From Desulfatiglandales bacterium (GTDB lineage: Bacteria; Desulfobacterota; DSM-4660; Desulfatiglandales; HGW-15), in assembly GCA_963667015.2 (NCBI GenBank), contig CAXXJJ010000004.1:588874-652873 (forward strand): a stretch of DNA of 64,000 nucleotides. Reading direction: 5' to 3'. A program made the position numbers and the translations under genes. Under the pieces are notes generated by a model. The model was not told where the DNA came from and searched no databases. It worked only from the letters and a program-made list of their open reading frames with translations. Positions within the stretch are counted from its first letter, which is position 1; every line of letters starts with the position of its first letter. Below are positions 19,840 to 30,822 of the stretch, piece by piece.

Positions 19840-20634
19840 ATGCCAAAAGACAAAAAACCTGACAAAAATGAAACATCAGAAAAGACGATGAACCGGCGGC
19901 AATTTCTTGTCGGCGGCAGTGCTGCACTTGCTGCAGGGGCAATTGCAGCAACCACCGGTGTAAAATCCGCTGCGGCAGCTGAACCCGAATCCTATCCGGA
20001 ATCAAAGGGCTATCTGGTTTATGACAGCAAAAAATGTATCGGCTGTACAACATGTATGCTGAGCTGCTCCATGGTCCATTATGGAGAGCAAAACCTGTCG
20101 CTCGCCAGAATCCAGATAATGCAGGATTCCTTTGGAAAATTCCCGAACGATCTCCAGATATCACCCTGCAGACAGTGTGTAACACCTCCATGTGTTATAA
20201 ACTGCCCGGTAGGAGCCGCTTATATTGACACCGAAAACGGCAATGTCAGAAGGATTAACGAAGATGATTGTGTCGGTTGTGGAACCTGCCTTAAAATGTG
20301 TCCCCAGCAGCCTCATCGACCTGTATGGAACCATATTACAGGAAAATCCACAAAATGCGACCTTTGCATCGATACCCCTTACTGGGATGAAAAAGGTGGT
20401 CCCGGTGGCAAACAGGCGTGCGTGGAATCATGCCCAATGCAGGCCATCAAGTTTGTTACAGAAACTCCTGACCAGAAAGAGACCGAAGGGTATAATGTCA
20501 ACCTGCGTAATGATCACTGGTTAAATCTTGGCCTGGTTGATGACAGCAGGATAATACCACCAAAAATGAAAAATGCGGGACCGATGATGTTTGGCCCACC
20601 AAAAGCAAAACCAAAACCAAAGGCAAAGGGATAG
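19840..20634 (+). CDS. Tat-signal 4Fe-4S ferredoxin-type subunit (multi-cluster)
   Basis: Twin-arginine motif NRRQFLVGG. Cys motifs CIGCTTCMLSC, CRQCVTPPC, CVGCGTCLKMC and CDLC...C. Lys/Pro-rich C-terminal tail. Confidence 0.85.
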   Translation: MPKDKKPDKNETSEKTMNRRQFLVGGSAALAAGAIAATTGVKSAAAAEPESYPESKGYLVYDSKKCIGCTTCMLSCSMVHYGEQNLSLARIQIMQDSFGKFPNDLQISPCRQCVTPPCVINCPVGAAYIDTENGNVRRINEDDCVGCGTCLKMCPQQPHRPVWNHITGKSTKCDLCIDTPYWDEKGGPGGKQACVESCPMQAIKFVTETPDQKETEGYNVNLRNDHWLNLGLVDDSRIIPPKMKNAGPMMFGPPKAKPKPKAKG

Positions 20635-20644
20635 GAGGATCGAT

Positions 20645-22702
20645 ATGAAAGGCGGATATACAGGTAAAATAGCAAGAGTAAACCTGACTACCAAATCGGT
20701 AAGCACGATTCCAACTGAAAAATACATAGAGTTTGGCGGTGGTCATGGAATAGGATCAGCGATTTTCTTGGATCTGGTAGGGGACCAGCTGCCCTTTGAG
20801 GCATTTGATCCCAGAAATTTAATAATAATGATGACATCCCCGTTTTCAGGAACAAATGTCCCTGCTTCCGGCAGATGCGAAGTTCAGGGCCTTGGTCCGA
20901 TGCTTTATCCTATTGAATGGTTTGGCCACAGCAGCTTTGGCGGACGCTTTACTTCCCAGCTAAAGTTTGCCGGGTGGGACGGCATTGTTGTTGAAGGTGC
21001 TGCAAGCGGACCCGTATGGATAAACATTGTAAATGATAAAATCACAATTGAAGACGGGAAAGACGTCTGGGGAATGGATACCTGGGATACTCAGCAGGAG
21101 ATATCCAGGCGGGTAATCCCCGGTCTCAGGCAGGGTGAATGGGCAGAGGTTGCAGATGATGACTACACTACCCAGATACCGGCTGTAGTATGCTGCGGTG
21201 TTGCAGGAGAAAACAAAAGTCGTCTTGGAGCCCTTCTTCATGGACCGGGATCACAGGCTGCATTATGTGGTTTTGGAGGGGTATTCGGTTCAAAAAATCT
21301 GAAAGCTATAAGCGCAATAGGAACAGGCGGTGTAAAGATTGCTGATCCGCAGGCCTTTATGGATGCGCGTTTGTGGTACAGACAGTTTCAGTGGAACGTA
21401 GACAATCCCCGCGAAGCGAAAAGATTTGAGGCCAGTGGATACAGCCTTATCAGCGGTGCACCCAGCGGAGGAAACGTTACAAATGGAAGACCTCCTCTGG
21501 TCCCGGCAAGGGCGGCTGCCTGTGCGTCATGCCCCAGGGGCTGTCGCATGAGAACGGCTACAGGTGACAGTAATGAATCGGTTTGCGCTGGAACAATGGT
21601 TTTTGGAGGATTCGGAAGAGGAAACGCTGCAGAGTCCCGCAGAAATAACGACCTGATGCAAAAATACGGTTTCGGACACTGGCAGCTTATGCCGACTATG
21701 AGATACCTGACGAGTCTCAAATCAAGAGGCCTTATAGGTCCCGGCAAGCTGATGGAATGTGATCTTCCTCTGGACAAGGAGAATACTCCGGGTTTTGCAA
21801 ATATGCTCATGGATGCCATGGCAAACCGAAAAGGGATCGGTGATGACATGGCCGAAGGTGCTGCAAGATGGGCAAAAAAATATGGTCTACTTGAAGATGA
21901 TATGAGCAAAGGAATACTCCGTTTGAGCTACTATGGGACCCAGGAGCACTATGACTCAACCACACAGGTCGAGTGGGGTTTCGGATCTATCCTCGGTGAA
22001 CGCGACCTTATGCTGCATATGATGTCTAATTATCCGCTTCACTGGATGGCCCAGTCGCGTGACCCCTATCTGACAGCAGAGGAAGCTGCCAAGATTTATA
22101 CAAAGGCAATGGTTCCCTATCATGATTATGACGGTCATGAGTTCATGCTTGACTACGGCGATGGTCCAACCGGAATTTATTCTGACCACAAGGTAAAACA
22201 GGTTGCCTGGGTAAAACATTATGAAAAAATGTGGATAGGCGGCGGAGGATTCTGCGGCTGGAGATGGCCAATGTGTATCACAAACAATACAGCAGACAGA
22301 CACGGGCCCACACCCGAGGCAGAACAGAGATTCTGGAATGCTGTAACTGGAGACAACAAAACCTTTGAAGAATCCATGGAACTGGGTCATAAGATCTATA
22401 CCCTGGACAGGTCAATCTGGGTACTGCAGGGCAGGCACAGGGATACGGAAGTATTTCCGGATTATATTTACGACCAGCCCACCAGAGGAAGTGAGCAGCC
22501 CATGTACCAGAATGGCAAATGGGCCTACGAGACCGGTCAGGGCAGAAAGCTGAGCAGAGAAAAATTTGAAGACTGGAAAACCAGGTTCTATAAATTTGAG
22601 GGTTACAATCCTGAAAATGGATACCCCACAAAGAAAACCCTTAAGAAAATGAATCTCGATAAAGTCGCCACGCTTTTGAAGAAGAAGGATAGACTGGGTT
22701 AG
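20645..22702 (+). CDS. Aldehyde:ferredoxin oxidoreductase (AOR) family tungsto-/molybdopterin enzyme
   Basis: Lies within track ORF 20591..22702. ATG at 20645 follows AGGAGG. N-terminus MKGGYTGKIARVNLTT...FGGGHGIGSAIF and cluster motif CASCPRGC (CxxCxxxC). Confidence 0.85.
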   Translation: MKGGYTGKIARVNLTTKSVSTIPTEKYIEFGGGHGIGSAIFLDLVGDQLPFEAFDPRNLIIMMTSPFSGTNVPASGRCEVQGLGPMLYPIEWFGHSSFGGRFTSQLKFAGWDGIVVEGAASGPVWINIVNDKITIEDGKDVWGMDTWDTQQEISRRVIPGLRQGEWAEVADDDYTTQIPAVVCCGVAGENKSRLGALLHGPGSQAALCGFGGVFGSKNLKAISAIGTGGVKIADPQAFMDARLWYRQFQWNVDNPREAKRFEASGYSLISGAPSGGNVTNGRPPLVPARAAACASCPRGCRMRTATGDSNESVCAGTMVFGGFGRGNAAESRRNNDLMQKYGFGHWQLMPTMRYLTSLKSRGLIGPGKLMECDLPLDKENTPGFANMLMDAMANRKGIGDDMAEGAARWAKKYGLLEDDMSKGILRLSYYGTQEHYDSTTQVEWGFGSILGERDLMLHMMSNYPLHWMAQSRDPYLTAEEAAKIYTKAMVPYHDYDGHEFMLDYGDGPTGIYSDHKVKQVAWVKHYEKMWIGGGGFCGWRWPMCITNNTADRHGPTPEAEQRFWNAVTGDNKTFEESMELGHKIYTLDRSIWVLQGRHRDTEVFPDYIYDQPTRGSEQPMYQNGKWAYETGQGRKLSREKFEDWKTRFYKFEGYNPENGYPTKKTLKKMNLDKVATLLKKKDRLG

Positions 22703-22938: not shown

Positions 22939-24672
22939 ATGAAAAGGATATTTACATCAGCTAAATTCCTGCTTTTACTTGCTGCGTCTATCCTTGTGTG
23001 CAGTGCAGCTCAGGGCAGTGAAAAAATTACGGTAATGAATCCGGCAATCGCAAATCCCATGGTGGACCGGGTAGCATTGACAAAACGTCTCGACACACTT
23101 GATAACAAAACCCTTTATCTCGTGGATATCAACTGGGGCGGCCCTGATGCGGCCTACGGTGTTTTCAAGGAAATGGAAATATGGTTTTCTGAAAATATGC
23201 CCAAGGTAAATGTTGTACTAAAGAGAAAAAACGGCAGCTACATGTCTGATGACCCGGCATTATGGAAAGAGATCGGTGAAAAAGGAGATGCCGCAGTTAT
23301 CGGAATATCTGGTTGAGACAGCTGTACCTCGGCCGTGAGCCGATTCTGTAAAACACTGGAAACAACCTATAATATACCTACTGTAGGCGGAGCAGCAGCC
23401 AATATCATGAGTTATGCTGTTGGATATAATATCACAAATGTAACCGGCATGCCTGTCCGTTTTGTCGGATTTCCTTTTCCTGTTGCAGGCCAGCCTCAGA
23501 AAGTCCACAGGCAATATGTAAGGGGAAATGATATGTTGAGCGGTAAACCAATGATGCAGACCATCATTGAAGGCCTTACAAAACCACGGACGGAAGAAGA
23601 AAAATACTCAGGTCCTGCTCCGGCCCCGACTCCGGAACCCAGATTTTTACCCCCGGATACAGAAGAAAACCTTCGTCGTCTTTTCAAGGAGAAGGACTGG
23701 ACCGACTATAATCCAATAATTCTTCCTACTGAAGATAAAGTAAAAGCCATGCTTGAAGGCACAAGTCACGAAGCAGATGAAGTGCTTGTAACCCTTAACT
23801 GGCCTGGAGGAGAAAGAAAATTTACCGTGGAAAAAGCAGCAATCTGTGCTGTTATGGCAGGTGCAAAACCTGAATACTTCCCGCTTATTCTGGCACTTGG
23901 GACGCAGGTAGGAAATTTTGGCAATTCCACCAGTTCAATGGCAAATATAATACTGGTCAATGGACCGATACGCAATGAACTGGGGATGAATTACAAGGGA
24001 AATGCCATGGGCCCCCATAATGAGGTCAACTCCGTTGTGGGCCGTGTCTTCACCCTTATGGCAAAGACAGCCGGCAATATTCATCATGGAGTAACTACTT
24101 TCAGCACACTGGGAAGCAACCTTCAATACAACAATCTCTGCATAGCAGAAAATGAAGAGGCCCTTCCGGAAGGCTGGAAACCCTACCATGTGAGTATGAG
24201 GTTTAAACCCAATGACAGCACGATCACGGTAGGCAGGGGTTGGACCTATATTTCAAGTGTAGGTGAAGCACAGAAGGCTTATCCTCCACACTTCCTCATG
24301 CGTGATTATATGAGATCTCTGGGAGCATTCGGTGGTGCATCCGTAATAATGGACCCGACAGTTGCAAAACTGCTTAAGGATAATTATGAAATGAAAACAA
24401 AAGAAGATCTCAGTAAATGGCTTGCAGAGAATATTGAAAAAACAGTTGATTCATTCTGGGGTAACGGTGTTGCAGCCACAGGAATGCTGCCGATGGCCAG
24501 ACAGGGCCTGCCTCCATATGCAGATTACCTGAATATGCCGGGAGATACGCTGATAAAGCCCTTTAACGCCCGCAGCATCAATATATTAGCTGTTGGCGGT
24601 GAGATTCAGACAACATGGTTTGTTACCGATTTCGGTCTTGGCAGGCCGGTTTCGGTTGATGAGTGGAGATAG
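22939..24672 (+). CDS. Predicted exported selenoprotein (577 aa) with in-frame UGA at 23314-23316 (Sec126) in a G-U-D-S-C motif. N-terminal GrdB/UGSC-like redox domain fused to an uncharacterised ~440-aa domain
   Basis: Track ORFs 22939..23316 and 23335..24672 share one frame and are separated only by TGA plus 6 sense codons. The second ORF has only a GTG with no SD. Reads ...GDAAVIGISG-U-DSCTSAVSRFCKTLE.... Sec-type signal peptide MKRIFTSAKFLLLLAASILVCSAAQG. A hairpin follows the TGA. Confidence 0.65.
23317..23349 (+). promoter_or_regulatory. Candidate bacterial SECIS-like hairpin
   Basis: Inner stem UCGGC/GCCGA (23329-23333 with 23339-23343) and apical loop CGUGA (23334-23338), which begins 17 nt after the UGA. 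A possible outer stem ACAG/CUGU (23318-23321 with 23346-23349). Short by comparison with fdhF-type SECIS elements. Confidence 0.4.
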
Positions 24673-25295: not shown

Positions 25296-27662
25296 ATGGC
25301 CGACTTAGCAGGTGTAAACGGGCAAAGGAAGGAATTCAGGGTTGTTGGGAAACCAAACCTTCCCGGCAGACTGTCCTATTCAATAGCAACAGGCGTGGCA
25401 AGATACGGCGCAGACTATGTAGTTCAGGATATGCTCCATGCAAAGTTTTTAAGGAGCCCCTATGCAAATGCCATAATAAAGAGCATGAATACAGACAATG
25501 CCATGAAAATCCCCGGAGTTGTCGACATTCTTACCTGGGAAGATGCGGATATCAAAGGGTTGAGTGCAGGCGGGGGATTTATGGGACCCGGCCAGCCTCT
25601 CCTGACTGATGCTGCAGATCAGGAAGGAGGCATTATAGGGGCAATTGTCGTTGCTGAAGATGAAGACATCTGCGATGAAGCCTTAAGGAGGCTTAAAGAA
25701 GACTCTGAGTGGGAAATATTGCCGCATCTGGTAGACATCCTTGAAGGAAGAAAACCGGATGCACCGGTGATTCGCCCCCCTGCCCCACAAACAGGCGGAG
25801 GAGGATTCGGAACAGGAGGAGGAAATAACCCGCCTAAAAAAGGTAATGTTTCCTATTCCAACATAAGCGCGGGCGATATAGAGGCCGGGTTCAGGGAGGC
25901 TGATCATATCATAGAATATGACATAAACCTCCCTGCATTTGCGGGGCATCTCCCGGATCCTGTAGGATCTGTTGCATGGTGGTTTAATGCCCCTTATCAT
26001 GGCGAAGGGAAGAGCCTCAGGATAGAAGGCAATGCCTGGGGCCATGACCAGGTAGTGGGCATGTACAAGATGCCCCCGGAAAAGGTCTTTCAGGAGTGTA
26101 TGCTTGTAGGAGGCAGATATTGTGACTGGGGCATACGCGAATCCCAGTTAATCACACCCCTTTTAGCTAAAAGAACCGGAAGACCGGTCAGATGTGTTCA
26201 GAGCCGCTATGATCAATATGACTTCAACCTTAACCAGCGCTTCATGCATATGAAGATCGGCTTTAAAAAGGATGGCCTGATTACCGCGATAGACGATTTT
26301 TCAATCGCAGACAACGGGGTCCGAAGCAGTTCGGTTTTTGGCACTTCAATGGATCAAACCTATGGCCCCTATTTCACCACAAGGTGCCAGAATGTCAGGC
26401 AAAACATGGACATTGTTGACAGCAACCGCGGCAAGATGTGGCTAAGCGGTCAGCATAATCCAATGAACTGGGATTCAATAACCCTGGCAATACTTATGAT
26501 TGCCGATAAACTTGACAAAGACCCTGTCGATGTAGCAAGGCTTAATCTGCACGGACCCACATCCCAGACTGACCCTGATCCTGTACCCAGCTTTGAGGCA
26601 TGTATTGAAGCCGCAAAGAAAATGATGAACTGGAAGTGGCACAGAAAAGGTGAGAAAAAGCTTAAAGACGGAAGGCTGCACGGAGCAGGCTTCAGGTATC
26701 AGCAGTGTCCCAGACACTCCGGCATGGTGTTCAACCCTAAACTTGAACTCAGAAACGGTGTTGTACACCTTGATTCCAGGGGTCCTGTTATAGGCAATTA
26801 TATAATGGAAGCAAATATGATGGTTGTTGCCGAAGAACTTGGACTGAGGTATGAAGATATCAAGGGTGAACTCGATCACCATGAAATCTATAAACCCTGG
26901 GGTGGAGGAAGTGACGGAACAACCGCTTCTGGCTGGGCATTGAAGGAATGTGCCAATAAATTAAAAAAGCTGATCCTTGAGACTGCGATAGAGGAAGCAA
27001 ATAATCCTGCCCCGACTGGCGGTATTGGCGGATTTGGCCCGAAACAACCTCCCAATCCATTTAAGGATGCAAAACCTTCCGATCTTGACCTGCAGGATGG
27101 AAAGGTTGTGTTCAAAAACAATACCGATAAAGGGCTTCCCCTTGCACAGGCCGTCAAGTCCAACCTTTTTGCAACCTATTCAGGCAGGCCACCCCTTGCC
27201 CTATGGAACGAACGTGGCAAAAAACTGGACACCATGAATGTTGCCATGTGTGAGGTTGCTGTTGATACTGAGACAGGAGAGGTAGAAATCCTCCGCTTTG
27301 GCGTGGTCGCTGATCCGGGCAAGATCATGCGTCGTACCTCGCTTGAGAGCCAGATTCATCAGGTAATGTATTTCAGTGAAGGCTGCCAGCTGTTTGAAGA
27401 TTATATATATGATAATAAAACAGGTGTGAAACTCAGCACCAATATGTTTGAATATAAAAAACCGACTATTATGGATCATGCGCCGGTTGACATGGAACTG
27501 CTTGAAACCCGTGCGGGAAATGCCTGTTACGGGGCTAATGGTATCAGCCATTCACTTGCAAATACCCATCTTGTTATTTCTGCGATATACAACGCGATAG
27601 GCAAATGGGTCGATCCTCCGGCTACGCCGGATAAGGTCCTTAAGGCCCTGGGAAAGGCATAG
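25296..27662 (+). CDS. Xanthine dehydrogenase/aldehyde oxidase-family molybdopterin-binding large subunit (PaoC/CoxL-like)
   Basis: a/b-hammerhead N-terminus (RVVGKPNLPGR...ARYGADYVVQDMLHAKFLRSPYANA). 788 aa. Two Gly/Pro-rich insertions (QTGGGGFGTGGGNNPP and PTGGIGGFGPKQPP). Confidence 0.85.
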   Translation: MADLAGVNGQRKEFRVVGKPNLPGRLSYSIATGVARYGADYVVQDMLHAKFLRSPYANAIIKSMNTDNAMKIPGVVDILTWEDADIKGLSAGGGFMGPGQPLLTDAADQEGGIIGAIVVAEDEDICDEALRRLKEDSEWEILPHLVDILEGRKPDAPVIRPPAPQTGGGGFGTGGGNNPPKKGNVSYSNISAGDIEAGFREADHIIEYDINLPAFAGHLPDPVGSVAWWFNAPYHGEGKSLRIEGNAWGHDQVVGMYKMPPEKVFQECMLVGGRYCDWGIRESQLITPLLAKRTGRPVRCVQSRYDQYDFNLNQRFMHMKIGFKKDGLITAIDDFSIADNGVRSSSVFGTSMDQTYGPYFTTRCQNVRQNMDIVDSNRGKMWLSGQHNPMNWDSITLAILMIADKLDKDPVDVARLNLHGPTSQTDPDPVPSFEACIEAAKKMMNWKWHRKGEKKLKDGRLHGAGFRYQQCPRHSGMVFNPKLELRNGVVHLDSRGPVIGNYIMEANMMVVAEELGLRYEDIKGELDHHEIYKPWGGGSDGTTASGWALKECANKLKKLILETAIEEANNPAPTGGIGGFGPKQPPNPFKDAKPSDLDLQDGKVVFKNNTDKGLPLAQAVKSNLFATYSGRPPLALWNERGKKLDTMNVAMCEVAVDTETGEVEILRFGVVADPGKIMRRTSLESQIHQVMYFSEGCQLFEDYIYDNKTGVKLSTNMFEYKKPTIMDHAPVDMELLETRAGNACYGANGISHSLANTHLVISAIYNAIGKWVDPPATPDKVLKALGKA

Positions 27663-27672
27663 GAATACAGTA

Positions 27673-28062
27673 ATGCAGAAATATCTTACTAAATGGATTG
27701 ATTATAAACTTCCTACTGGTCAGGAATTTTCAGTGGCTGTCTGCGGATACAGCGGGAAGGTTCGGCATTTATACCTTGGAAATGACCCTATACGCAGGAT
27801 GATTGCACAGCATGTTTATGCGGAAGAAGGATTCTGTCAGATAGGTGACCACTGCTTTGCCCTGGACTGCCCCCTTAACAGGGCAGATAAGGAACATCTC
27901 CTTCACATGCTTGACATGACGGAGGATGAAGCAATGGACCCAGAGGCATCCGAACAATGGGGAACCGGAAGTACTCTGGAGGGCTTTCTGTTATTTGCCC
28001 GTAAGATAACCGAATCACTACCCGAAGACCTGAAAAAACCCCAGGCTCCGGTAGAGGAATAA
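27673..28062 (+). CDS. Hypothetical 129-aa protein
   Basis: ORF packed tightly between the Mo subunit and the methyltransferase. Contains a Cys/His-rich stretch FCQIGDHCFALDCP. No family recognised. Confidence 0.5.
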   Translation: MQKYLTKWIDYKLPTGQEFSVAVCGYSGKVRHLYLGNDPIRRMIAQHVYAEEGFCQIGDHCFALDCPLNRADKEHLLHMLDMTEDEAMDPEASEQWGTGSTLEGFLLFARKITESLPEDLKKPQAPVEE

Positions 28063-28081: not shown

Positions 28082-28933
28082 ATGGAAAAAGTAACAGACT
28101 GGATCGCACTGTGGAAAGAACTTGTCGAAAAGCAGGGGCCATTCTGGAACCATAAAAAAAGATCCAAAGATAACAGGGATAAATGGAAGGACAGGTCACA
28201 GGGATTTTATGACCGTGTCAAAAAAAGATGGTCAAAACCGGATCCTCACAGAGATTTTATTGTCTCCATGATTTCATCGGTCAGTGATGCCACTGTTATT
28301 GATATCGGTGCAGGAACAGGCGCATGGGCTGTTTATTTATCGAGATCAGCAAAAAAGATTACGGCAATTGAGCCTTCTGCTGAAATGAGACAGATATTAA
28401 GGGAAAATATAGAAAAAGAAGGTGTTGACAATGTTGAAGTCCTGGACAAATTATGGCCTGTGCCCGACATGGAAACACATGATTTCTCTCTCGCTTCACA
28501 CTCTGTTTACGGATGCGAAAATCTTCAGGGCTTTGTTAATGCAATGACCAGAGCCACGAGGAATACCTGCTTTATGCTGCTCCGGGCCCCTGATCATAAC
28601 GGTCTTATGGCAAGGGCCGCCAGCAGGATCTGGGGGCAGCCCTATGACAGCCCTAATTTTCAGGTAGCCTACAATGCAATGCTCCAGATGGGCATGTTTC
28701 CCAATGTGCTCATGGAAGAAAGAGGCATGTGGCCAAGATGGACAAATAATAACTTTGAAGAAGCATTTGAAAGGATCAGGTCAAGATTCGGGCTTGAAAA
28801 AGACACAGATTATGATCCATTCCTAAGGAATCTCATTGAGAAGCACCTTAATGAAAAAAACGGAATGATAAAATGGCCTTCCGAATTAAGAACCGGCCTT
28901 GTCTACTGGAATACTTTAAGAGAACAGGACTAG
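28082..28933 (+). CDS. Class I SAM-dependent methyltransferase
   Basis: Motif I VIDIGAGTGAWAVYL followed by an acidic residue after beta-2 (ITAIEPS). Confidence 0.75.
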   Translation: MEKVTDWIALWKELVEKQGPFWNHKKRSKDNRDKWKDRSQGFYDRVKKRWSKPDPHRDFIVSMISSVSDATVIDIGAGTGAWAVYLSRSAKKITAIEPSAEMRQILRENIEKEGVDNVEVLDKLWPVPDMETHDFSLASHSVYGCENLQGFVNAMTRATRNTCFMLLRAPDHNGLMARAASRIWGQPYDSPNFQVAYNAMLQMGMFPNVLMEERGMWPRWTNNNFEEAFERIRSRFGLEKDTDYDPFLRNLIEKHLNEKNGMIKWPSELRTGLVYWNTLREQD

Positions 28934-28939
28934 ACAAAT

Positions 28940-29998
28940 ATGAGCATTAACAAAAAGTGGAAGCAAAAATTTGATATACTGAAAAACTATATAGCAACTA
29001 ACTCTGAAATTATTATAAATACAAACGAAATATCCATACCGGAGCATCTACGTGATAAATTCTACGATTATTTTGATGATATCCGGAATACGTTTGTAGA
29101 GGATTTTTTCACCTCATTACCGCTGGATGCAGACACCCTTTGCAGGAACTATAATCAGTCGGAAAAAGAGCTGATCGACTTTCTAAATCTTGAACGTATC
29201 GACCTGCCTGTGGATCTTATAAGCTTTCTTCATAATCCAAGAGAGGGCATGGTACGCTGGCTCTACAACAGATTGTTCGAAGTAATACAGGAAAAGATAT
29301 CAATAGAAGATTTTGAACAGATTGCGGAAAATGATCTGGTCGCAACAACCGCAGAGATGTACCGGCTTGGGTATGAAACATGGGCAGTTCTGACACTTAT
29401 CCTTTCACTTGACCCTGAAAAGGCATACTCTGTTGAGCTAGATGAGGAATATAATCCTATTGCTGGAGAACTCAAGGTAATTGCCTTTGGTCGTCAGTTT
29501 AATCACAGTACAAAGCGCATACCTGAATTTATTATTCATTCAAAAAAACTTGATTGTTATGTTGCGGTAAAGGTGCCACTGGCAAAGGAAGTTGAGGGAT
29601 ACCATCTCCCCCACGAAGTCCCTAAAAAGATGCTGAGAGACCGCACCGGTGATACATCCTATGTACTGGATTCAAGGATTTTATTTCTTTCAGTGCTAAA
29701 AAACCTGGATGATATTCCTATTTATGCTGAAATATCTGAGCGTAAGATAGAAAGCCCTGACGCAGTAATAGAATTCCTGACCTCAGAAGACCTGAATGAC
29801 GCGGAAAAAATTTCTCAGATTCAAAAACGGTTAAAAATTATGAAACCAGGGCTTGGCGGTTCAGTTATGGTTATGAATCCCGATTATAAAACTGGTTCCG
29901 AACCATCAGCGGAAGGTATTGATATATTTTTAACAGGATTTGATAGAAATAAATTACAGCAGGTTACTCAAAAACTTTTAGTCGGCAAAGAAAGCTAG
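28940..29998 (+). CDS. Hypothetical protein (AT-rich gene)
   Basis: 352-aa ORF. The first 100 nt are about 25% G+C by my count, visibly lower than flanking genes. No family recognised. Confidence 0.55.
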   Translation: MSINKKWKQKFDILKNYIATNSEIIINTNEISIPEHLRDKFYDYFDDIRNTFVEDFFTSLPLDADTLCRNYNQSEKELIDFLNLERIDLPVDLISFLHNPREGMVRWLYNRLFEVIQEKISIEDFEQIAENDLVATTAEMYRLGYETWAVLTLILSLDPEKAYSVELDEEYNPIAGELKVIAFGRQFNHSTKRIPEFIIHSKKLDCYVAVKVPLAKEVEGYHLPHEVPKKMLRDRTGDTSYVLDSRILFLSVLKNLDDIPIYAEISERKIESPDAVIEFLTSEDLNDAEKISQIQKRLKIMKPGLGGSVMVMNPDYKTGSEPSAEGIDIFLTGFDRNKLQQVTQKLLVGKES

Positions 29999-30102: not shown

Positions 30103-30822
30103 ATGACTATGGCGGATGAGACAAGTAACATAAACCGCAGGAGCTTTCTTAAAAACGCGGGAGTCATAATCGGTGGAAGTGCCATTGGCGCAGCCGGAAT
30201 GACGCTCAGGCCGGAAATGGCGCAAGCCGCTGAAGCCGTTAAAGGGGTCCCCCGGACCGTTACGCAGTTCCGTTGCCCTGTTTGCAGCAAAAATTTCAGC
30301 AGCTTTGCAGAATTAAAAAATCATTTTAAAACGGATCATCCTGAACAAGTAGAGCCCGTCACTACAAAGCTCAATATAAACGGAGAGGAATGCGAGGTAC
30401 TTATCGAACCCCACTGGACACTTCAGCGAACCCTTCAGTTCAAACTCGGTCTTACAGGCGCAAAACACATGTGCGGCCGTGGCGTATGCGGATCCTGCAC
30501 GGTTATTATGGATGGAAGGGCTATCCTGTCATGTACGACACTTGCTGTGGAGTGTGAAGGCAAACACATCCAGACGGTTGAAGGCATAGCAGCAGATCCC
30601 AAATGGAGGCCCCTGATCGATTCCTATTGTAAATGGGATGCCATGCAGTGCGGTTACTGTACCCCGGGGTTTCTAGTAAGCGCCAAGGCTCTCCTGGATA
30701 AAAAACAAAACCCGACCGAAGAAGACTGCAAACAGGCACTGGCAGGCAATATCTGCTGCTGCGGTACATATCACCGTCATCCAACCGCCATCATGGAAGC
30801 CGCTCCTGCAGTAAAGGCATGA
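30103..30822 (+). CDS. Tat-signal (2Fe-2S)-binding small subunit of a molybdenum hydroxylase (PaoA/CoxS-like) with an inserted C2H2 zinc-finger motif
   Basis: Twin-arginine NRRSFLKNAG. 2Fe-2S motifs CGRGVCGSCTV and CGYCTPGF...CCCGTY. Insertion FRCPVCSKNFSSFAELKNHFKTDH. The start could be ATG at 30109, which has better SD spacing. Confidence 0.85.
   Translation: MTMADETSNINRRSFLKNAGVIIGGSAIGAAGMTLRPEMAQAAEAVKGVPRTVTQFRCPVCSKNFSSFAELKNHFKTDHPEQVEPVTTKLNINGEECEVLIEPHWTLQRTLQFKLGLTGAKHMCGRGVCGSCTVIMDGRAILSCTTLAVECEGKHIQTVEGIAADPKWRPLIDSYCKWDAMQCGYCTPGFLVSAKALLDKKQNPTEEDCKQALAGNICCCGTYHRHPTAIMEAAPAVKA

Follow-up and report, generated by a model that had tools for sequence, protein, structure and literature searches.

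The question raised by this locus is what a zinc finger of the classical Cys2His2 (C2H2) type could be doing on the exported iron-sulfur subunit of a bacterial molybdenum enzyme. The gene lies in a stretch of 64,000 nucleotides (the window) from a Desulfatiglandales bacterium (contig CAXXJJ010000004.1, positions 588,874 to 652,873 of the forward strand). Fingers of the classical C2H2 kind are seen as a eukaryotic tool for binding DNA, and the accepted bacterial counterpart, Ros/MucR, differs in fold and spacing. In the window protein, the sequence F56-R-C58-P-V-C61-S-K-N-F65-S-S-F68-A-E-L71-K-N-H74-F75-K-T-D-H79, read from the translation of 30103..30822, stands between the twin-arginine translocation (Tat) signal peptide and the first of two iron-sulfur cluster domains. 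We find that this segment is a genuine Cys2His2 (in some lineages Cys-Asp-His2) mini-domain and that, within one clade of xanthine-oxidase-family molybdenum enzymes, it belongs to the iron-sulfur subunit as a constant component.

The motif itself can be defined precisely. A preliminary description of this DNA had located it at 30274-30339, which is exactly C58 to H79 (30268-30273, immediately upstream, encode F56 and R57), and had named C58, C61, F65, L71, H74 and H79 as its conserved positions; both statements hold, with the consensus (F/Y)-x-C-x2-C-x3-F-x5-L-x2-H-x4-H satisfied at each position. The PROSITE-type pattern C-x2-4-C-x3-hydrophobic-x8-H-x3-5-H is also satisfied (C58-x2-C61-x3-F65-x8-H74-x4-H79), and it was matched only once in the window when open reading frame (ORF) segments of at least 60 amino acids were searched in six frames. 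Codon-shuffled windows gave 0.01 matches on average, and the motif is not a chance match. Among the Pfam models, zf-C2H2_4 (E = 6e-5, score 23.8 against a gathering threshold of 27) and zf-C2H2 (E = 2.8e-4, score 21.6 against 25.2) match residues 55-80 of the small subunit, narrowly under their cut-offs. Across the family, represented by the window protein and its 120 best homologues drawn from 5.8 billion proteins (121 aligned sequences), 87 of 121 members match zf-C2H2_4 at E <= 0.01, with a best value of 2.7e-7. Automatic PF13894 matches already stand on some database entries of the family. By pattern and predicted fold, the finger is described here as classical-type C2H2. No paper on the finger in this enzyme family was found in the literature on zinc fingers in connection with Tat, molybdenum enzymes or the periplasm.

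The protein that carries the finger is a CoxS/PaoA-type small subunit. Fer2, Fer2_2 and Fer2_3 were matched in Pfam, and the solved structures 4zoh_C, 1t3q_A, 1rm6_C and 5g5g_A were matched in the Protein Data Bank (PDB) with E-values of 1e-43 to 1e-34. The cysteines of both [2Fe-2S] clusters are invariant in the 121-sequence alignment. Together, Fer2 with Fer2_2, both sets of cysteines and the nearby genes for molybdenum cofactor (Moco) and FAD subunits define it as a xanthine-oxidase-family small subunit, and NCBIfam places it in the same family, below every equivalog cut-off. That this [2Fe-2S] subunit is Tat-exported, as previously proposed, is borne out by its N-R-R-S-F-L-K signal, which scores 18.3 bits with TIGR01409 (cut-off 16.7); R12, R13 and F15 are invariant in 121/121 aligned small subunits, and PF10518 matches the signal region in 72/121. 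The finger starts at most 14 residues after the predicted signal cleavage site. In the C-terminal part of the protein, the last cluster motif (residues 218-220, 30754-30762, + strand) reads G-N-I-C-C-C-G-T-Y in place of the usual G-N-L-C-R-C-T-G-Y; at least 90% of the clade share its middle Cys, where the Bacillota have Ile instead.

Conservation is concentrated on the metal ligands and the hydrophobic framework of the finger. All 120 homologues are about 240 amino acids long, share 68-96% identity and carry the twin arginine (RR). Ninety-six of them have C-x2-C-x12-H-x4-H and the other 24 have C-P-[IV]-D with both His, and the pattern C-x2-[C/D]-x12-H-x4-H is kept in 120/120 homologues as well as in 80/80 loci of the genomic scan described below. 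C58, H74 and H79 occur in 121/121 sequences, while position 61 is Cys in 97 and Asp in 24. Around the ligands, F56, P59 and L71 are each found in 120 of 121 sequences, F75 in 119, P80 in 118 and F65 in 107, and position 68 is always F or Y. R57, K63 and K72 are conserved surface residues of the finger, and P50 and T52 of the lead-in are at least 90% conserved. The residues at the classical DNA-contact positions 67, 69, 70 and 73 are T/S, A/G, E/A/D and N/S/Q, none of which is basic. The finger is thus present in close orthologs and its Cys and His positions do not vary freely, in keeping with the preliminary description. At the nucleotide level, ligand codons interchange synonymously among 60 genes (TGC/TGT, CAT/CAC), and the non-synonymous difference is 0.19 for the finger, 0.24 for the signal, 0.26 for the lead-in and 0.07-0.09 for the cluster domains; the ratio of non-synonymous to synonymous change per region is qualitative only, as synonymous sites are saturated (pS ~0.7). 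Judged from these alignments, the four ligand positions and the framework residues F56, F65, F/Y68, L71 and F75 are under strong purifying selection across six phyla.

Structure prediction yields, with confidence, the fold of a classical finger. An AlphaFold2 run on the 121-sequence alignment predicts a beta-beta-alpha arrangement, for which the preliminary description had looked to a model, with strands 56-57 and 64-65 and helix 68-78 by DSSP and a predicted local distance difference test (pLDDT) score of 81-95 over the finger residues. Residues 1-46, covering the signal region, are disordered in the model (pLDDT < 50). The tether has a pLDDT of 91 in the full-length model, with no drop between the finger and the ferredoxin domain. 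The beta-beta-alpha fold persisted in a model of residues 43-93 by themselves, built from the same alignment; with the ferredoxin domain removed, pLDDT fell from 91-95 to 74-81 in the finger and from 91 to 44-59 in the tether. This fall hints at a packing of finger and tether on the ferredoxin domain. A Foldseek search with the finger-only model returned nearly exclusively classical C2H2 fingers, among them those of ZNF524 (0.9 Å over 28 residues, probability 0.99), BCL11A (0.4-0.5 Å), Kaiso, Tramtrack, Zif268 and CTCF; the ZNF524, BCL11A and Kaiso fingers superpose at 0.4-1.4 Å over 25-34 residues. In the PDB sequence comparison, no solved small subunit, PaoA (5g5g_A) included, aligns with the query before residue ~86, and none of them has the finger.

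Comparison with known fingers sets this one apart on several points. With the classical C2H2 finger (PF00096 / PF13894) it shares the C-x2-C-x12-H-x4-H spacing, the F/L framework and the predicted beta-beta-alpha fold. Unlike the classical finger, it is fused, once or in some cases twice, to a subunit of a bacterial redox enzyme, often an exported one; Pro nearly always follows the first Cys (P59, 120/121), additional aromatic residues are present at F/Y68 and F75, H-x4-H is invariant, the second Cys may be Asp, and the DNA-contact positions are not basic. Ros/MucR, a DNA-binding regulator, also has H-x4-H, with a shorter Cys-to-His spacer of about x9. The different spacing of Ros/MucR, noted in the preliminary description, is in line with the x12 spacer found here, and a Pfam scan of the small subunit gave no ROS_MUCR match up to E = 1. 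Both are bacterial Cys2His2 sites with Cys or Asp as the second ligand, and the finger, a predicted beta-beta-alpha unit of 25 residues, is not a Ros/MucR domain. The Ros domain comprises 58 residues arranged as beta-beta-beta-alpha-alpha, its second ligand is naturally Cys or Asp, and tetrahedral Zn/Co coordination is retained in Ros87_C27D (PMC5745721).

The enzyme as a whole can be compared with two characterised systems. Like E. coli PaoABC (5G5G), it has a Tat signal on the small subunit (S), two [2Fe-2S] domains and a four-Cys loop in the medium FAD subunit (M), and co-export of the large subunit (L) and M is presumed. In PaoABC the Tat signal is on the small subunit, L and M are hitchhikers, and PaoA is exported without a finger (PMC4273604). 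The word insert is apt, and the earlier statement that PaoA has none proved correct, since PaoA (5g5g_A) aligns only from query residue ~86 and position 45 of its NCBIfam model corresponds to query residue 80; unlike the window protein, PaoA runs from the signal peptide straight into the ferredoxin domain. The window enzyme scores 114 bits with the PaoA equivalog model (cut-off 322) and 100 with the PaoC model (cut-off 1180). With 4-hydroxybenzoyl-CoA reductase (4-HBCR) HcrCAB (1RM6) it shares the S/L/M composition and a continuous match of M to TIGR03195 (the beta subunit of that enzyme), one stretch (3-251) that includes the Cys-rich loop. HcrCAB, unlike the window enzyme, is cytoplasmic and acts on a CoA-thioester substrate, its HcrC has 161 amino acids with no N-terminal extension, and the window scores against the 4-HBCR equivalog models are far below the cut-offs. 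The loop of M (HRCWYFRKPENRFDCKRKGGSTCF...GGC) follows the GTIGGN motif, and we take it to be of the HcrB/PaoB type that holds an extra [4Fe-4S] cluster. On these comparisons, the enzyme belongs to a separate PaoABC/4-HBCR-like clade with two predicted [2Fe-2S] clusters in S, FAD and a four-Cys [4Fe-4S]-type loop in M, and Moco in L.

How widespread is the finger? A genomic scan with one genome per species gave 175 loci, of which 80 were examined; all genomic figures rest on these, and the finger is present in all 80. The loci closest to the window belong to Desulfatiglans and Desulfobacteraceae, with 83-93% identity, the same gene order and several paralogues per genome. The other finger-bearing loci come from Acidobacteriota (at least four copies in one genome), Sedimentisphaerales, Leptospirales, Spirochaetes, Oscillospiraceae and Clostridiales, and include the isolate Sporobacter termitidis DSM 10068. 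In all, the finger is found in six phyla (Desulfobacterota, Acidobacteriota, Planctomycetota, Spirochaetota, Bacillota and Chloroflexota). Conservation at saturating synonymous divergence over six phyla indicates that the finger is neither recent nor neutral. In one Acidobacteriota locus (L024:14634-15366), a second small-subunit copy is out of frame through the signal and the first finger ligands ('...IPLPHCGKNLATFAELKNHFATAH'); the copy is probably a pseudogene with a frameshift, or else the assembly is in error.

A profile search of 1.84 billion cluster representatives extended the picture to more distant relatives. Twelve of the best 150 representatives bear the finger; outside the Tat-less derivative described below, RR signals are present in seven of these and in the window's own clade, and some have lipoboxes. 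It is also carried by more remote small subunits that have Thr-rich linkers and are of the Tat or Tat-lipoprotein type. Two of the proteins are annotated as Dehalococcoidia: P0129 has two fingers, CPIC and CPFD, and is encoded in an operon of S-L-M order with the four-Cys loop in M, and P0203 has one finger, CPFD. In P0137, a degenerate copy lacking Cys is followed by a CPYD copy. Many related Tat small subunits have the Thr-rich linker only, such as P0123, which shares 75% core identity with Acidobacteriota members of the window's clade. The finger thus appears to be patchily distributed among related Tat subunits, as placed in a coarse neighbour-joining tree. The profile-search matches also include a protein of 3179 amino acids with 38 matched stretches, probably a multi-finger protein.

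The link between finger and export can be examined in a group of enzymes whose Tat signal has been lost. The small subunits encoded at 19 loci of Bacillota, Spirochaetota and Leptospirales lack the RR motif and the hydrophobic core and keep the finger with all its ligands. In the alignment this is a clean deletion of RR and core that leaves a c-region-like 'FT.E...A', the lead-in and the finger (L050, L059, L061, L064, L079), and the Leptospirales protein of L050 has a full-length decayed signal in which RR has become NS; the series looks like a stepwise loss of export. Loss of the signal on S goes together with a change in M. In 15/15 Tat-less loci whose DNA covers the M gene (in the other 4 of 19 it lies off the contig), M has about 780 residues as against the usual ~316, one of the 15 reading 735 amino acids where the contig end cuts it. 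The extra ~460 residues match Fer4_20 and Pyr_redox_2 and lie inside the four-Cys loop; by sequence they form an oxidoreductase module for NAD(P)H resembling the glutamate synthase small subunit (GltD). Because the Tat-less versions keep the finger with all ligands, the finger is not tied to export, being retained in Tat-exported and in predicted cytoplasmic, NAD(P)H-linked enzymes alike.

The features of the locus are collected in Table 1. L and S are separated by the genes of the 129-amino-acid (129-aa) protein, the methyltransferase (MT) and the 352-aa protein, and L is presumed to be the partner of S and M. The same order, L-129aa-MT-352aa-S-M, is found in L005; L001, L003, L011 and L019 have L-129aa-MT-352aa-S, after which the covered DNA ends or a second large-subunit gene follows. 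The commonest operon order elsewhere is S-L-M. The 129-aa and methyltransferase genes are conserved in these five loci, and the 129-aa gene alone in L014 and L049. The 352-aa protein has no Pfam match below 1e-3 (the best, DUF6849 at E = 0.0026, is under the cut-off) and no PDB match at E <= 1. Among the 61 Tat-type loci, 21 (from Desulfobacterota and Acidobacteriota) have a homologue of it as neighbour; none of the 19 Tat-less loci does, and one more homologue is encoded in a distant Dehalococcoidales operon (L081:10997-12247). It may be an accessory or maturation factor.

Table 1 Features of the finger-bearing molybdenum-enzyme locus in the window and of related loci
Feature	Position	Strand	Evidence or remark
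Small (iron-sulfur) subunit gene, 239 aa	30103..30822	+	ORF list, Pfam/NCBIfam scans, 120 homologues
Twin-arginine signal peptide, residues 1-42 (N-R-R-S-F-L-K, hydrophobic core, A-Q-A at 40-42)	30103..30228	+	TIGR01409, conservation
Lead-in, residues 43-55 (13 residues)	30229..30267	+	Alignment
C2H2 finger, residues 56-79	30268..30339	+	Sequence, conservation, AlphaFold2, Foldseek
Pro-rich tether, residues 80-87 (8 residues; P80, V83, P85, V86), from finger to ferredoxin strand 1	30340..30363	+	Conservation
Plant-type [2Fe-2S] domain, residues 88-165, and helical [2Fe-2S] domain, residues 166-239	30364..30819	+	Pfam, PDB matches
Medium FAD subunit, 319 aa	30839..31798	+	Pfam FAD_binding_5, CO_deh_flav_C; directly after small-subunit gene
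Large molybdopterin subunit, 788 aa	25296..27662	+	Pfam Ald_Xan_dh_C, MoCoBD_1, MoCoBD_2
129-aa protein, Cys/His-rich	27673-28062	+	No family match
Class-I methyltransferase	28082-28933	+	Between 129-aa and 352-aa genes
352-aa protein, no signal peptide	28940..29998	+	Recurrent neighbour of finger-bearing small subunits
Tat-signal 4Fe-4S protein (MNRRQFLVGG)	19840..20634	+	Upstream of Mo-enzyme genes
Aldehyde:ferredoxin-oxidoreductase (AFOR)-family protein	20591..22702	+	Upstream of Mo-enzyme genes
445-aa protein	23335-24672	+	No match in PDB sequence search
FAD subunit of ~780 aa, Sporobacter termitidis	L064:13050-15380		Fer4_20 + Pyr_redox_2 insertion
Loci with the same enlarged FAD subunit	L050, L057, L059, L061, L063, L066-L068, L071, L073, L074, L076, L079, L080		

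Two further features of the surroundings recur in other loci. Upstream of the molybdenum-enzyme genes, the trio of 4Fe-4S, AFOR-family and 445-aa genes is found again in several Desulfatiglans-type loci and the Fe-S/AFOR pair alone in some Acidobacteriota loci; these genes suggest a second exported aldehyde-type oxidoreductase. In the large subunit, residues 1-25 MADLAGVNGQRKEFRVVGKPNLPG (25296-25370, + strand) are near-identical from Desulfatiglans to Bacillota and specific to the clade. This N-terminus (MADLAGVNGQR...) was considered as a co-occurrence partner of the finger and rejected, since it is missing from the Dehalococcoidales operon; it is also missing from an ordinary Cox-type operon in L031.

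As to the role of the finger, we lean, with modest confidence, towards a contact module of the holoenzyme that is stabilised by zinc and rigidly tethered to the first ferredoxin domain. The finger would take up a single structural Zn(II) in the cytoplasm, ahead of export; the folded S-L-M complex would then leave by the PaoABC-type hitchhiker route, and the finger would have its set place against the N-terminal ferredoxin domain, a neighbouring subunit or both, where it would provide protein contacts and stability. A structural Zn(II) site is consistent with the ligand pattern, with the predicted fold and with the Cys/Asp alternation. S, L and M are the only genes common to all finger-bearing operons, so that a universal partner of the finger should lie inside the complex; natural S-L or S-M fusions with the finger were not found among the best 150 representatives. 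Several observations weigh against such a module: the tandem fingers on long Thr-rich linkers in Dehalococcoidia and the patchy distribution resemble a portable, exposed element more than a buried clamp, PaoABC and 4-HBCR function without a finger, so the basic architecture does not require one, and the Foldseek E-values (0.08-0.9) are not significant, because the finger is so small. The exposed look of the tandem fingers, together with the conserved surface residues R57, K63 and K72, would suit a docking handle on which finger and lead-in offer a platform to a separate protein, either an electron acceptor or donor or a cytoplasmic factor for maturation or export timing comparable to a Tat proofreading chaperone. 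The 352-aa protein is the candidate for the latter, as its family has no signal peptide and keeps to Tat-type loci and the Dehalococcoidales operon. Yet in 40 of the 61 Tat-type loci the flanks covered contain no such gene, the association runs along phylogenetic lines and shared descent may be all that lies behind it, and Tat-less enzymes keep the finger with no 352-aa gene beside it; we consider a handle for an outside partner, the chief rival of the contact module, doubtful. Its most far-reaching form, in which an old bacterial lineage of classical beta-beta-alpha fingers (Cys2His2 or Cys-Asp-His2), active away from DNA and often beyond the cytoplasm, would serve as a zinc-dependent handle for assembly or export control on Tat-exported redox enzymes, read by the 352-aa factor, seems to us quite unlikely.

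The contact module has also to be weighed against roles in export, electron transfer and nucleic-acid binding. The preliminary description had offered an extra Zn or redox-metal site, a docking module and a folding checkpoint for Tat export; of these, an added structural metal site or a docking module stays the best reading. A fast-folding metal domain directly behind the signal could report or enforce folding, or delay export until L and M are bound, and both the short distance to the cleavage site and the apparent origin of the finger in Tat-exported small subunits, with RR in seven representatives and the window's clade, speak for this. As a general function it finds no support in the Bacillota, Spirochaetota and Leptospirales, which lost or degraded the RR motif and core, carry the NAD(P)H-oxidoreductase insertion in M and retain the finger complete. 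Many close Tat small subunits, moreover, have a Thr-rich linker and no finger, and PaoA is exported without one (PMC4273604), and a checkpoint is improbable. Two Cys and two His on an electron-transfer subunit could in principle hold mononuclear Fe or Cu, or an Fe-S cluster, and so extend the electron-transfer chain or form a catalytic site. The alternation of the second ligand between Cys and Asp in close relatives (24/120 Asp) would be a drastic change for a redox centre and makes one unlikely; P0137 has a degenerate copy with neither Cys, the predicted fold is a compact single-metal beta-beta-alpha unit, and the N-terminus of a plant-type ferredoxin may lie away from the cluster, which counts in the same direction. 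We regard a redox or catalytic site as very improbable. Hardly credible is a finger that binds nucleic acid or moonlights as a regulator, or one that was recently transferred from a eukaryote and has no function. The Pfam zf-C2H2 models do match, and the nearest structural neighbours are DNA-binding fingers; the objection is that just one finger is present, that the enzyme subunit bearing it is exported, and that small, acidic or polar residues occupy the DNA-contact positions, and a recent or neutral transfer is at odds with its conservation in six bacterial phyla. The earlier judgement that DNA binding is implausible agrees with these non-basic positions and the exported location, which make such a role very unlikely; as against DNA binding, a part in the structure or the assembly of the enzyme is almost certain.

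In conclusion, a bacterial molybdenum enzyme of anaerobes, often Tat-exported, has among its conserved parts a finger whose spacing is exactly the eukaryotic one and whose predicted fold agrees with it; this adds a protein-level role for the C2H2 fold in prokaryotes. The finger marks out an abundant enzyme clade, of which Desulfatiglans and Acidobacteriota genomes encode several paralogues each, and provides a natural Cys/Asp series for the study of metal-site tolerance. If a handle read by the 352-aa factor were true, prokaryotes would be using the fold for protein-protein contact in a new way, and Tat substrates would have a maturation signal of a new kind. The cytoplasmic form in the cultured Sporobacter termitidis DSM 10068 opens the function of the finger to direct testing.

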